This document shows positions 4,348-7,825 of a DNA stretch of 64,000 nt, piece by piece. This DNA is from a virus (lineage: Duplodnaviria > Heunggongvirae > Uroviricota > Caudoviricetes). The stretch's first letter is position 1. Each line of letters starts with the position of its first letter. The stretch spans positions 1-64,000 of IMG/VR virus record IMGVR_UViG_3300009709_000002. One strand, 5' to 3'. Below the pieces are notes generated by a model, which saw nothing but the letters and a program-made list of their open reading frames with translations, searched no databases and had not been told where the DNA came from. Both the position numbers and the translations under genes were made by a program.

Positions 4348-4758
4348 GTACTAGAGATAAAGTCGGTTAGTGCCTCTACTGGTACTCAAATCAACCAAGA
4401 CGAGAGTAGAGCTGATGCAGCTTTCGCCACACCTAACTCCCAGTACCAACGCTAGATTTGTCGCGGCTGGCTTACGGCTCATAATAACGGATATGGCACC
4501 CGGATACCTAACCTTAGGTGACGCGGTCTGATAGTTAGTCTAGTCAGAAAGACTCATCCTGAATCCCCAGGTGAAGAGGTTGTGCCATCGTACTGCAGAG
4601 ATGCATCCCAGAGCTTACCTTTCGGGTTATCTCCAAGCTACATCAATTCGACGGTATATTGTGCTCCACAACGAGCCTCTCAGCGAGGGTAATATTGCTG
4701 AGACGTTTAGCTCTTAGAGTAGTCATTTTGAAGTATCACTCCCCTACGCAGCTAGTAC
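4348..4758 (-). ncRNA. large structured ncRNA candidate A (~410 nt)
   Basis: ORF-free; ends pair (GTACTAG/CTAGTAC); internal GAAA-capped hairpins; followed by terminator at 4311-4330. Confidence 0.6.
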
Positions 4759-4801
4759 GGTTGGAAACAGCCCCAATCAAGGAACTGCTTCCAATTTATT
4801 A

Positions 4802-4942
4802 AACCTGAGTTAAAGTCGAAAAGAGACTGATGTTGAAGTCTGCTGTCCTACCACTAGACGAAACCACAATCGTGGTTGCCGGAATCGAACCGACGTGTGC
4901 AGATTGGAGTTAACGAAGGAACTCTCTTCTACGCAACAGGTT
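4802..4942 (-). ncRNA. YrlA-type Y RNA (circularly permuted tRNA-like domain)
   Basis: Order T-arm (GTCGG-TTCGATT-CCGGC), loop-closed acceptor stem (AACCAC-GATT-GTGGTT), D-arm (AGTGGT loop); long basal stem AACCTG/CAGGTT with GTAGAAGAGAG/CTCTTTTCGAC. Confidence 0.75.
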
Positions 4943-5017
4943 TGGTAGCGGGAGACGGTTACGCTCCGCCCTGCTCTGGCTTATGAGGCCAGTGATGAAC
5001 TACTCCTCTATCCCGCA
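4943..5017 (-). tRNA. tRNA-Met(CAT), initiator-like, atypical T-loop
   Basis: 1:72 mismatch; CTGGC-CTCATAA-GCCAG; T-loop AGCGTAA; encoded CCA. Confidence 0.8.
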
Positions 5018-5031
5018 AACCTTCACAACTA

Positions 5032-5382
5032 CTATTCTGTAACTTCGGTGAGCTGGTTGCGTTCCTTGTAATAGCTCCACACGTATTCACCGTCTGAGCT
5101 ATATCCTGAAGGACCTTTCAACTGATAGATTCGACCAGACTTTGTCTTGCCGACCATCTTAGCTTCATCGAACTCTACGATCTGAGTCGAAACTCGACCA
5201 TTTCTGCCACCAGCTTCCGTTCCAACAAAGTATTCACCTTTGTCGGTCTTCTTAATCGTCCAATCATAAATGACGACAGAAGGCTGTTCTTCAATACTAG
5301 CTGCTGACCAGATAGAATTTCTGACCAAATGCAGAATCATCTGCTCAGCACTTGGCGAAATATTGTCTTGCTCTTCACTCAT
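5032..5382 (-). CDS. hypothetical protein
   Basis: 116-aa ORF with GRVST..TKSGRIYQLKG motif; early promoter upstream. Confidence 0.8.
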   Translation of the reverse strand: MSEEQDNISPSAEQMILHLVRNSIWSAASIEEQPSVVIYDWTIKKTDKGEYFVGTEAGGRNGRVSTQIVEFDEAKMVGKTKSGRIYQLKGPSGYSSDGEYVWSYYKERNQLTEVTE

Positions 5383-5461
5383 AATGGCTTGGTGTTCTTA
5401 TCGGTTGTGTTTAACCGATATGTGAATTATATCCAAGCTTGTTTTGAAAGTAAATTACTTT

Positions 5462-5809
5462 TCAATCGTTCTGGTCAACAACAAACAGTGCATCACCTCG
5501 AGACAGACCCATCTTCTTAAAGAGAGCAACAAGCTTTTCACTATCAAGCCTATTGGTGTCAACTCCATATGCTCCAAGAATTGCTGTCAGAACCTTGATG
5601 GCATCGTCATGAGACTCTTCTGGATTTGATAGTGTGCTGAATAAAACGTCACCAATTACGTTTTCATCCTCAACGGCTGCCAAGAGAGTATGAAGACCCT
5701 TCATAAATTTTCGAATGATCTCGCCTTGACGAGCACCATTCTCTTCCATCTCATCGTCTTCATCATTCTCGACGATCGTCTTACGTTCTAATACATCTAT
5801 GAGGTTCAT
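5462..5809 (-). CDS. acidic late protein, paralogue of 5806-6156
   Basis: Shared N-terminus (M.LID.L.R..IVE-acidic) and C-terminus (FK.MGL.RGDALFV.DQ). Confidence 0.8.
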   Translation of the reverse strand: MNLIDVLERKTIVENDEDDEMEENGARQGEIIRKFMKGLHTLLAAVEDENVIGDVLFSTLSNPEESHDDAIKVLTAILGAYGVDTNRLDSEKLVALFKKMGLSRGDALFVVDQND

Positions 5810-6156
5810 GATTGGTCCAATACAAAGAGAGCATCGCCACGAGTTAGACCCATAGCTTTGAAGAATTTGATGAAAGCTTCCTGTTCGGCGTCTTCATGAT
5901 CATAGTCAAATACTTTCGCTACACCATTGATGATGGCATCAGCTACTTGATTTACATCACCACCGCCACCACCGAATAACCAGTGATGAACATCCTCTTC
6001 ATCGAGCTTGATCTTACCTTTGCCCCACTTATTGAGAGCAGCCATCATCTTTTCACAAATTTCATCGCTGCGCTGCATATTGGCATCAAAATCGTCGTCA
6101 TCATCGTCATCGGTTTCAACGATAAGCTCTCGATCTAGTATGTCGATAAGATCCAT
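5806..6156 (-). CDS. acidic late protein, paralogue of 5462-5809
   Basis: As above; ATGA overlap with the next gene. Confidence 0.8.
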   Translation of the reverse strand: MDLIDILDRELIVETDDDDDDDFDANMQRSDEICEKMMAALNKWGKGKIKLDEEDVHHWLFGGGGGDVNQVADAIINGVAKVFDYDHEDAEQEAFIKFFKAMGLTRGDALFVLDQS

Positions 6157-6158
6157 GC

Positions 6159-6572
6159 TTACTCCGCGGCGAGGTCGCGCTCGTAAACTTGAACAGCTTT
6201 CTTCGTGCCAGCTAGCTTTACGTTGTAGAACGTGTCACGTGAACGCTTGCAGTAGCCATGATCTTCAACAGTTCCGCACTTACCGATGTGGGCTGCATAG
6301 TTTTCATCGGCGCCTGTCGAGATGCGAACTTTGTCGCCCTTACAGAACTTCTGCATCGTAGCTGTAGTTGGTGGAACAAGCTTTCCATCTTGACCAGCAA
6401 CCTTGAACTTAGCTTCCTTCTCAGCAGCTGCATCAGCTTGCTTCTTCGTAGGTTCCTTCTTTTGCGGAGGATTCTTTGTCGGAGGTGTATCCTTAGCCGA
6501 AGGATTTTTGCCCGGTTTCGTCTTAGCGAGGGCGTCTTTTTCTACTTTTAGCAGTTCTAGAATGAGGTCCAT
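6159..6572 (-). CDS. Lys/Pro-rich late protein with C-terminal KOW/SH3-like domain
   Basis: FCKGDKVRI...GKCGTV...YNVKL; late box at 6599. Confidence 0.7.
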   Translation of the reverse strand: MDLILELLKVEKDALAKTKPGKNPSAKDTPPTKNPPQKKEPTKKQADAAAEKEAKFKVAGQDGKLVPPTTATMQKFCKGDKVRISTGADENYAAHIGKCGTVEDHGYCKRSRDTFYNVKLAGTKKAVQVYERDLAAE

Positions 6573-6623
6573 ATGGAATCCTTAAGTTGAGATGTGCTTA
6601 TTTATTGTGTGGCAACGAGGATT

Positions 6624-6908
6624 TTACTCTTCGCTACCAGCTTCTTTGTGCAGCATCTTCTTTGCTTTTTCAAGCGTCATTCTACGATCACCAGAAAGCT
6701 TCGTACCCGCGCGATTGATGTAGAAGTTCAGAGCAGACATAGCGCCTTTGAGGTCGCTGTGTTCCTTCTTAAGCCACTCAACAATCTCAGCAGCTGAACC
6801 ATCAGCAAACAGATCTTTGGGTGAGTGCTTCTTCGTCTTTACATCGGCAGACCAATGCTTCTTCTTGCCTTCGTCTTTCTTTTCAGAGAGAATGTCAATG
6901 AGTTTCAT
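6624..6908 (-). CDS. DUF3175-like protein
   Basis: WS..V and AMSALNFYINRAGTKL...LEKAK motifs; late box at 6932. Confidence 0.7.
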   Translation of the reverse strand: MKLIDILSEKKDEGKKKHWSADVKTKKHSPKDLFADGSAAEIVEWLKKEHSDLKGAMSALNFYINRAGTKLSGDRRMTLEKAKKMLHKEAGSEE

Positions 6909-6945
6909 ACGTCATCCTTATTAAGATGAAGTATTTATCTCACCT

Positions 6946-7188
6946 TCATTTGATAGCGGCTTCAAGCTGTGCCAATTCTTCTTCAGTGATGTCAGGAATG
7001 GCAATTTTGACCTCTTTCTTGAAGATGCTGATCATTTCTTCAACAAAGCTAATGCCGTGATTTGCTTGAGCATCTTGTGCAACTTCCAGGTTCCACTTAA
7101 TAGAGAGCGGAACTCCATCAAATGAAAGCTCACAAACTGGATTGTACGTCTGCGGATCGATACCTTGCTTGACTGTGAATTTGCGCAT
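6946..7188 (-). CDS. small protein with a major-capsid (gp23)-like segment
   Basis: KWNLEVAQDAQANHGISFVEEMISIFKKEV resembles gp23 ..ELAQDLRAVHGMDADAELSGILATEI. Confidence 0.55.
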   Translation of the reverse strand: MRKFTVKQGIDPQTYNPVCELSFDGVPLSIKWNLEVAQDAQANHGISFVEEMISIFKKEVKIAIPDITEEELAQLEAAIK

Positions 7189-7206
7189 ATAAATTTGAAT
7201 GTAACA

Positions 7207-7230
7207 ACGGCTCTCGTAATTGAGAGCCGT
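7207..7230 (-). terminator. hairpin after tRNA-Gly
   Basis: ACGGCTCTCGTAATTGAGAGCCGT. Confidence 0.6.
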
Positions 7231-7232
7231 GT

Positions 7233-7308
7233 TGGAGCGGGCGAAGGGATTCGAACCCTCGACATCTACCTTGGCAAGGTAGTGCTCTACCAGCTGAGCT
7301 ACACCCGC
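7233..7308 (-). tRNA. tRNA-Gly(GCC)
   Basis: Canonical cloverleaf with CCA; TATAAATA late box at 7321-7328. Confidence 0.95.
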
Positions 7309-7346
7309 ATTGCATACTACTATTTATAAGAGAAATTCAATGATCC

Positions 7347-7825
7347 ACTAGGTTCGATGAATCTGCTGCAAGATGCTTTTCACTTTCTTGTCGGTTGGTC
7401 ACACTACCTAACCTATCATGTCGACGTGAAGAAATCTACTAAGAATCTCTCGACTTACGCTTAATCTCTCCGTTCTCTACAGGTCAACTTAGAGTGGCTC
7501 TAGCGTGGTCCATGGTCTTCAAACCACTTATCCTACCTTCGCGGATGCACCAGAGGTTGACATCATGTTGAACGACTCCCAGAGCTGCATATGTAGGCCG
7601 ATATTGGCTGAATCGATAGATAGCCTACCAGTTCTACATACCTGGATTTCATTGAAAGTCCGTCTAACTAGCACGTTCGTCGAGGGCGAAAAGCTTGCTC
7701 GTTGTAGCTAGTTAGGCGGTGTGACTTTTAGCGTTGATGACGCCTACTCTTTGAGGCCTCAGGAAGTATGCTCGCATCCACGAGGGAAGTAGGACGCATA
7801 CAACGGAGGATTCACTACCCCTAGT
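7347..7825 (-). ncRNA. large structured ncRNA candidate B (~480 nt)
   Basis: Ends pair (ACTAGG..GTGAATC / GATTCAT..CCTAGT); long internal helix CCGCCTAACTAGC/GCTAGTTAGACGG; no credible ORF. Confidence 0.6.

Follow-up and report, generated by a model that had tools for sequence, protein, structure and literature searches.

Y RNAs are known as short partners of the Ro60 protein, and it is the variable loop of the RNA that decides the target to which Ro60 is tethered. In bacteria and phages (YrlA/YrlB, Rfam family RF02553) the two ends of the RNA form a long stem that contains a conserved internal loop, and what lies between the ends is a variable cargo; at least two such RNAs are typically present, among them one that bears a tRNA-like module and another that is a simple hairpin, and they are often co-transcribed (PMC4201824). 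The characterised ones measure 80-130 nt, are encoded within ~2 kb of the rsr gene, and possess near the 5' end the Rsr-binding motif GNCGAAN0-1G (PMC4201824). In this work we describe an RNA of 411 nt, called A here, which is encoded by the minus strand at positions 4348-4758 of a 64,000-base window of phage DNA, and compare it with these molecules and with a second stretch, B, at positions 7347-7825 of the same strand. The window, bases 1-64,000, lies at the left end of a virus record that measures 360,227 bp and carries direct terminal repeats; the genome is that of a T4-like jumbo phage with a T4-type gp23 capsid gene, and its RNA genes include 51 tRNA genes and one tmRNA gene. A preliminary description of this DNA had taken A and B for possible paralogues in one diverged family of large phage RNAs. 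The reading that we favour, and to which we give a probability of roughly 0.55, is that A is a giant Y-RNA-like RNA whose closing module (the clamp) would be a docking site for Ro60, and that B is a separate, probably transcribed RNA and no paralogue of A.

Y RNAs of the YrlA/YrlB kind are the nearest known relatives in type, because A shares its basal stem module with neighbouring YrlA-like RNAs. The ends of A form a long stem with a conserved internal loop and the remainder is variable, as in the Y RNAs; in the Y RNAs, however, this part is a tRNA mimic or a simple loop, whereas in A it is a domain of about 18 helices. The window phage also resembles the described Y RNA systems in having several such RNAs per genome, at least one of them with a permuted tRNA-like domain, in a tandem arrangement presumably processed from one precursor (PMC4201824); a Ro60/TROVE gene is in its genome as well, but far from A. 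A phage precedent is Thermus phage phiLo, in which the phage Ro60 homologue was shown to bind two Y-like RNAs of the phage and to recruit the PNPase of the host, the proposed role being a hijack of this enzyme (PMC12135203). The window phage likewise combines a Ro60 homologue with more than one Y-like RNA, but the phiLo RNAs Yrl1 and Yrl2 adjoin the Ro60 gene and their binding was shown by experiment, whereas for A the binding is inferred and we saw no sequence relation to them.

Large multi-hairpin RNAs borne by phages beside tRNA genes, GOLLD and ROOL, form another group for comparison. A and B both lie on the minus strand of a tRNA island that also contains a GOLLD confirmed by Rfam, and this true GOLLD is 3.4 kb away from A. 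However, A is half the size of GOLLD, its Y-type clamp is absent from the Rfam GOLLD consensus alignment, and we see no evidence for RNA-only multimers of A. The tRNA cluster of T4 contains two stable non-tRNA RNAs, species 1 and 2 (rnaC and rnaD), which are processed from the cluster and have no known function; at ~120-140 nt they are much smaller than A, and seg-type homing endonuclease genes lie nearby.

The covariance-model scan that the preliminary description had proposed was run with all 4227 families of Rfam 15, both at E<=10 and at the gathering score, and gave nothing on A or B, GOLLD and ROOL included, while the true GOLLD of the island reached 187 bits in that search. The label "ROOL-like" is thus not supported, and the remark of the preliminary description that neither stretch bears hallmarks of RNase P, tmRNA or group I introns agrees with the absence of any Rfam or ARAGORN match on A or B. 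Either stretch being a tmRNA was ruled out: the genome's own tmRNA lies elsewhere, at 86.7 kb.

The A family, its clamp and its fold

A is a genuine large structured phage non-coding RNA (ncRNA) of a previously undescribed family, which bears out the suggestion of a new family in the preliminary description: the family is absent from Rfam and comprises seven distinct members with covariation, 331-417 nt long from CUAG to CUAG, all in phage or metagenome phage-like contigs. Below, G000 stands for the genome of the window phage, G001-G005 for its relatives and L-numbers for individual contigs or loci. Complete relatives were reached via the capsid protein (G001, 345 kb and 78% capsid identity; G002; G003). 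In G001 the syntenic gap directly after tRNA-Met starts with ACUAGCUGC-N8-GUGAUACUUC and finishes with AUCUCUAGU, as A does, and a metagenome scan with an end pattern of the G001 type brought, among chance matches, three more true copies. The close homologues L149 and L147 came from contigs encoding close relatives of the VWA gene, and a relaxed pattern gave L170. The parts of A to which the following paragraphs refer are these.

4348-4758, minus strand: RNA A, a structured ncRNA with 6 homologues, an 18-helix consensus fold and 29 compensatory pairs; its bounds are the ends of helix P1
4752-4758, minus strand: 5' strand of P1, GUACUAG, the partner of 4348-4354; covariation among members is seen in the flanking pairs (U-A, A-U, G-C)
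4745-4751, minus strand: J5, CUGCGUA, the 7-nt side of the internal loop; its UGC is invariant in 14/14 clamp-bearing RNAs
4737-4744, minus strand: 5' strand of P2, GGGGAGUG, pairing with 4365-4372; GUG/CAC becomes GCG/CGC in L149 and L170
4730-4736, minus strand: conserved AUACUUC directly 3' of P2, in 7/7 members
4654-4677, minus strand: block of 24 nt that contains hairpin H7 and does not vary among the three close members (alignment columns 87-110)
4365-4372, minus strand: 3' strand of P2, CACUAACC
4355-4364, minus strand: J3, the 10-nt side of the internal loop, with the consensus GACUUUAUCU; its length is fixed at 10 nt in all members
4348-4354, minus strand: 3' strand of P1, CUAGUAC
4303-4329, minus strand: terminator-like hairpin and UUUGUUGUCUA 3' of A, followed by the late-promoter-like box CAUAAAUA; the 11-mer occurs again at 7848-7858 and 54330-54340

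The clamp was found in the same register in 7/7 members, and the coordinates that had been given for A proved to be the exact outer ends of P1. Its 5' side consists of P1 (6-9 bp, containing CUAG), the 7-nt junction CUGCRNN, P2 (8-9 bp) and AUACUUC; its 3' side consists of P2', a 10-nt junction similar to GACUUUAUCU, and P1', so that a 7-nt/10-nt internal loop separates the two helices. Compensation in P2 can be followed from member to member, with the strands GGGGAGUG/CACUAACC, GAAUAGCG/CGCUCUUC, AGAUUGUG/CAUAAUCU and GGAUAGCG/CGCUGUUC.

Three members, A, L149 and L147, are close to each other (70-77% identical), and the four distant ones share little interior sequence. The sequences were aligned by MAFFT E-INS-i; the default mode of MAFFT mis-registered the diverged members. 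For the three close members the RNAalifold consensus has 112 pairs in 18 helices, with 95.4% of the cells paired and 29 pairs changed on both sides. When the pairing partners were slid by 1-3 columns, 36-42% of the cells remained paired and 0-3 pairs were compensatory, and none of 500 control shuffles reached any of the five measures. The fold was derived from the same three sequences, which inflates the share of paired cells but not the compensatory counts to the extent observed. None of the six pairs of H7 varies among these members. Single-sequence fold z-scores are modest (minus strand, -1.6 for A and -1.7 for B; plus strand, -0.1 and -1.2, respectively). The minus strand is favoured as the RNA A strand, because helix 9 contains invariant G-U pairs, which the opposite strand would turn into C-A.

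A hairpin, UUUGUUG and the CAUAAAUA box stand downstream of A in the window, in L149 and in L147; the homologue in L147 has its own AAUAAAUA box and no tRNA upstream; and the gene downstream differs per lineage, being a 95-aa open reading frame (ORF), csp, GIY-YIG endonucleases, or VWA directly. On these grounds we regard A as a discrete gene, not as the leader of a particular ORF. In G001 it is a cold-shock protein gene that follows the A homologue (L143:354-737; L070:~11971-12174, minus strand).

Direct similarity searches were of little use. Neither A, B nor the Y-like RNA next to A had a blastn match in the phage collection, and BLAST of A and B against the whole genomes G001-G005 returned chance-level matches only. 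Protein searches started from the 116-aa, 95-aa and DUF3175 neighbours of the island led to no related loci, and the IMG/VR loci reached through the VWA gene were without A, B or GOLLD. The A pattern had 9 matches in bacterial genomes, all lacking the 3' half, which we attribute to chance, and the look-alike motifs at G002:259182 and G003:54480 are coding sequence. L143 was considered as an A in a different context and rejected, the contig being a chimera or a rearrangement of a G001 strain: this 1.2-kb contig (Ga0307922_102540) joins three distant pieces of G001 (226.1, 230.9 and 240.6 kb), and its inner two joints fall by position in or beside tRNA arrays; it is either an assembly chimera or a deletion variant.

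Reading of translations also suggests that ORFs of free-standing homing endonucleases of the GIY-YIG type flank A homologues in other phages (L135:2123-2740; L139:98-769 and 1317-1946; L170, downstream from ~4300, minus strand). Such neighbours could explain the patchy distribution of the RNA.

Short clamp RNAs and the putative link of A to Ro60

Next to A, just upstream, lies a shorter RNA whose closing stem has both helices of the A clamp and the 7-nt/10-nt loop between them. It is a YrlA-like permuted tRNA mimic of 141 nt, folding into a T-arm, a D-arm and an acceptor stem with a loop at its end. In Rfam it matches YrlA alone, at 22.4 bits (E=0.008) vs a gathering score of 69. A clamp descriptor, whose filter demanded 6/6 paired positions in P1, at least 6/8 pairs in P2 and the motif after P2, was applied to ~1.5 Mb of phage DNA, to both strands of each genome. 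It returned 14 elements, namely six A members and eight short RNAs of 78-155 nt; L147 escaped, its P2 having 9 pairs. The short RNAs are distributed as four in the window genome, three in G001 and one adjoining A in L149. No match was obtained in G002, in G003 or in the rest of G000 and G001, and none outside the tRNA islands and the A loci; the seven short RNAs of the two complete genomes are all within tRNA arrays. The four short clamp RNAs of the window genome, the mimic among them, are built as P1/UUGCGUA/P2...P2'/GACUUUAACU/P1' and placed between tRNA genes, and have the following positions.

Window 4802-4942, minus strand: YrlA-like permuted tRNA mimic, 141 nt, with the order AACCUG / UUGCGUA / GAAGAGAG ... 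CUCUUUUC / GACUUUAACU / CAGGUU
Window 4808-4936, minus strand: the same mimic as delimited by the clamp descriptor
Genome 349719-349832, minus strand: short clamp RNA (locus L181)
Genome 350268-350333, minus strand: short clamp RNA, the minimal one of 78 nt (locus L181)
Genome 352381-352523, minus strand: short clamp RNA (locus L181)

Three of these four clamp RNAs possess tRNA-like arms, and the fourth consists of a bare hairpin. In the full set of eight, most show tRNA-like arms permuted in the YrlA manner, the RNA of 78 nt being the bare hairpin. The UGC of J5 is invariant in all 14 elements. In J3 a C at position 3 and a terminal CU are likewise invariant, although these three bases were fixed by the scan pattern. 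The P1 positions show 3-5 canonical pair types, P2 is 92% paired, and the motif after P2 in the short RNAs reads (A/U)U(A/U/C)C(A/U)(U/C)C, itself a scan filter; since P1, the P2 pairs and the motif were demanded by the filter, pairing fractions and motif conservation are partly circular. The closing module of A is the same module as in the short Y-RNA-like RNAs.

The genome of the window phage encodes a protein for which such a module may be a docking site.

Genome 110253-110933, minus strand: Ro60/TROVE-domain protein, within a 563-aa open frame that lies at 110-111.7 kb

The TROVE domain is present in G000, G001 and G003 and absent from G002, which has no clamp RNAs either; this co-occurrence is based on four genomes. 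A search for RtcB in the window phage genome did not find it. A and the eight short RNAs show what characterises Y RNAs, a stem formed by the ends with a conserved internal loop, and both of its helices covary. It would be logical to suggest that A is a probable, though unusually large, partner of the Ro60 protein which the phage itself encodes, a binding that we infer from the clamp. According to the mechanism we propose, A would be made from the transcript of the tRNA array or, as in L147, from its own promoter, and would end at the intrinsic terminator. The conserved clamp would then be the docking site for the phage-encoded ring protein, and the multi-hairpin domain of ~350 nt would take the place of the tRNA-like domain as an effector or a tether, by analogy with the Y RNAs tethering Ro60 to PNPase.

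A number of observations weigh against this. The literal GNCGAAN0-1G is absent: the 5' side of the clamp reads YUGCRUA, a CGAC is found across from it in J3, and only the UGC of the 5' side agrees with the AUGCu loop of the Rfam YrlA consensus. The Rfam YrlA model has no match on A at E<=10 and, at E<=1, none in L181 or L149, which contain four other clamp RNAs; even the neighbouring mimic remains far below the gathering score. The A members are 331-417 nt long, vs 80-130 nt for the characterised Y RNAs, and the TROVE gene is ~105 kb from A, vs the ~2 kb reported for rsr (PMC4201824). By the descriptor G003 has TROVE and no clamp RNA, and the L170 record, 37% complete, has A and no TROVE. The covariation of the full fold comes from three sequences, from which the structure itself was derived, and the descriptor statistics carry the circularity mentioned above.

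Several of these points would suit A being a real structured ncRNA in which the clamp is a module for processing, stability or the binding of another protein, for instance an excision signal for RNase P/Z/E or RNase III, and not a Ro60 site; the function of A would then be unrelated to Y RNAs and might be an RNA-only assembly of the GOLLD/ROOL kind. Besides the missing Rsr motif and the imperfect co-occurrence of TROVE with clamp RNAs, it agrees with the placement of all clamp RNAs of the two complete genomes in tRNA arrays, where processing signals are expected, and with the GOLLD neighbour in the same island. Still, a processing signal has no need of an invariant UGC and a fixed-length loop of the ACUUU type across unrelated interiors with covarying helices, the L147 RNA stands behind its own promoter-like box with no tRNA upstream, and the short clamp RNAs have YrlA topology in a genome that encodes Ro60; we therefore consider this explanation rather unlikely. 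A very improbable explanation is that A is a cis-acting leader, i.e. a long 5' untranslated region or a thermosensor, of the gene downstream. What speaks for it is the A homologue directly upstream of the cold-shock protein gene in G001 and L143, together with a sub-threshold match there of the Rfam cspA thermoregulator (55 bits vs a gathering score of 78), but by its coordinates this match is mostly over csp coding sequence, the downstream gene is different in every lineage, and a terminator-like hairpin with a new late-promoter-like box intervenes between A and the next gene.

Returning to A as a Ro60 partner, a broader and more tentative suggestion, which we hold to be possible, is that the clamp RNAs constitute a phage-specific radiation of Y RNAs, with one Ro60-docking stem and interchangeable cargo: a bare hairpin, a tRNA mimic or, in A, the ornate domain of ~350 nt. 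A might then be the first "giant Y RNA", tethering the Ro60 ring to a host factor of RNA decay, tRNA repair or defence, or scaffolding a large ribonucleoprotein, in the jumbo-phage infection alongside GOLLD. If this is true, a Y-type RNA of 330-420 nt with a covarying multi-helix domain would widen the Y-RNA concept, and A would give a testable handle on why jumbo phages carry Ro60. An island in which tRNAs, several Y-like tRNA mimics, GOLLD and two further large RNAs come together may be seen as a compact system for phage manipulation of host RNA metabolism, and the clamp descriptor can be used to mine further members.

Stretch B and its relation to A

Much of what had been reported of the two stretches was reproduced. 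Both are ORF-free, with no spanning ORF of at least 60 aa under genetic code table 11 or with TAG read as Q or TGA as W; both have minus-strand tRNA genes as neighbours on either side; and both can close their ends by a helix containing CUAG, followed by a second helix. Every one of the shared words which had been listed for A and B was found at its place. The interpretation put on their common order, i.e. that it is a sign of relatedness, was not confirmed, as the word chain and the alignments are near chance level. With blastn and nhmmer no similarity between A and B was detected; their Smith-Waterman score equals the shuffle mean, and the global alignment has z=1.5, with 21 of 300 shuffles equally good. 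The best collinear chain of exact words was matched by 11, 23 and 14 of 300 dinucleotide shuffles (k=6, 7 and 8, respectively), and by 19 of 300 random genome windows.

A common origin of A and B, as diverged paralogues of one family of large phage RNAs, has accordingly become improbable. In its favour one can still name the shared strand and tRNA island, the ORF-free character and the similar sequence of closing helices, the likeness of the 5' ends by eye (UAGGGGAGUGAUACUUC in A and UAGGGGUAGUGAAUCCUC in B), and a word chain slightly above chance, reached by 4-8% of shuffles. Yet there is no significant alignment, either local or global; closing helices of such size are expected about once per 500 nt by chance if the ends are free, by a rough estimate; the similar 5' words sit on the 5' strand of P2, which varies freely among A's own relatives; and the helices to which the common words belong are not the same in the two RNAs. 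Of the five words, GGUUAGGUA and AUGUAG come from parts of A that differ even among its closest relatives, and AACCGAC spans in A the border between P2' and J3, within a clamp that is missing from B. Laid in the register of the A clamp, B presents GGUA and CGAA as junctions, has no J5 or J3, forms 2 of the 8 P2 pairs, and is missed by the descriptor.

7347-7825, minus strand: RNA candidate B, a 479-nt ORF-free orphan with no Rfam match, failing the register of the A clamp
7588-7645, minus strand: variable hairpin of B with structure-preserving changes in L159, from the two-sequence consensus fold

By itself, B closes with ACUAGG/CCUAGU and GUGAAUC/GAUUCAU. Beyond strain variants, the phage collection, 31 related virus records and one IMG/VR pattern scan yielded no homologue, the single match of the scan being rejected because it is inside a coding region; the 80-aa ORF beside B gave no homologue either. 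Spurious ORF calls within the island gave access to the strain contigs. One of them, L158, is identical to the window. Another, L159, has 18 substitutions in B vs 5 in the adjacent 1.27 kb including GOLLD, a difference of ~10x per base, and 13 of them are concentrated at 7584-7642, within one hairpin and next to it. All pairs of the two-sequence consensus fold survive the substitutions: two double compensations occur (U-A to C-G and C-G to U-A), three changes stay paired if the minus strand is the RNA but not otherwise, and the others are at unpaired positions. If B is folded as a single sequence, two of the substitutions would break a pair.

Whether B is an RNA at all has to be weighed against its being a non-functional remnant or spacer of a fast-changing tRNA island, left over from a tRNA, an intron or mobile-element DNA. 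The lack of homologues in the collections named above, the equally relative-free 80-aa ORF, an island where indels and replacements between strains are concentrated, a fold z-score of only -1.7, and the fast substitution next to a quiet GOLLD side in L159 would all fit a remnant. We find it doubtful nevertheless, because the L159 substitutions respect the consensus pairs, with their compensations and the minus-strand-only pairs, even if that fold was fitted to both sequences, and because 479 ORF-free nucleotides have been kept on the transcribed strand between RNA genes. B is in our view a plausible but unproven structured RNA, with the balance leaning slightly to its side; it is probably transcribed and, on present evidence, unrelated to A.

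Other features of the tRNA island

In transcription order the island consists of tRNAs, GOLLD, tRNA-like stretches, B and tRNA-Gly(GCC), and then of six small ORFs, tRNA-Met, the 141-nt mimic, A and the terminator-like hairpin. Its remaining RNA genes in the window, with the tmRNA of the genome, are as follows.

8132-8575, minus strand: GOLLD RNA, conserved 3' half (Rfam RF02032, 187.2 bits vs a gathering score of 150)
8046-8122, minus strand: weak tRNA-like match from the Rfam scan at E<=10
7233-7308, minus strand: tRNA-Gly(GCC), 38 nt beyond the downstream end of B, with a TATAAATA box ahead of it at 7321-7328
4943-5017, minus strand: tRNA-Met(CAU), upstream of the Y-like RNA and A
Genome 86729-87083, minus strand: one-piece ordinary tmRNA

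GOLLD probably extends to ~8950 and sits between tRNA-like genes; it was not found in the related genomes G001-G005. A second tRNA-like stretch is visible by eye in the sequence near 7880-7960. Boxes similar to T4 late promoters are present at 4300-4307 (CAUAAAUA, minus strand), after the terminator of A, and at 7321-7328 (TATAAATA, minus strand), before tRNA-Gly, and the 11-mer TTTGTTGTCTA follows hairpins at 4303, 7848 and 54330.

The island also differs between strains. At 7958-8041 of the window a tRNA-like gene is swapped for unrelated sequence in the variants L162 and L163: L162 has an insertion of ~200 nt at 7958, and the L163 contig stops 41 nt into the same extra sequence. Assemblies of the window phage from several read sets break at tRNA genes, and a 68.8-kb contig carrying P0125 has a 3-kb gene-free gap beside DUF3175.

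Among the relatives, G001 has a circularly permuted (two-piece) tmRNA (RF04321, 84.5 bits; L069:6555-6937, minus strand), which adjoins two DUF3175 genes. A tRNA with a CUA anticodon, of the amber-suppressor type and called "Pyl" by ARAGORN, occurs in 4/4 jumbo phages, at 277432-277506 (minus strand) of the window phage genome and also in G001, G002 and G003.

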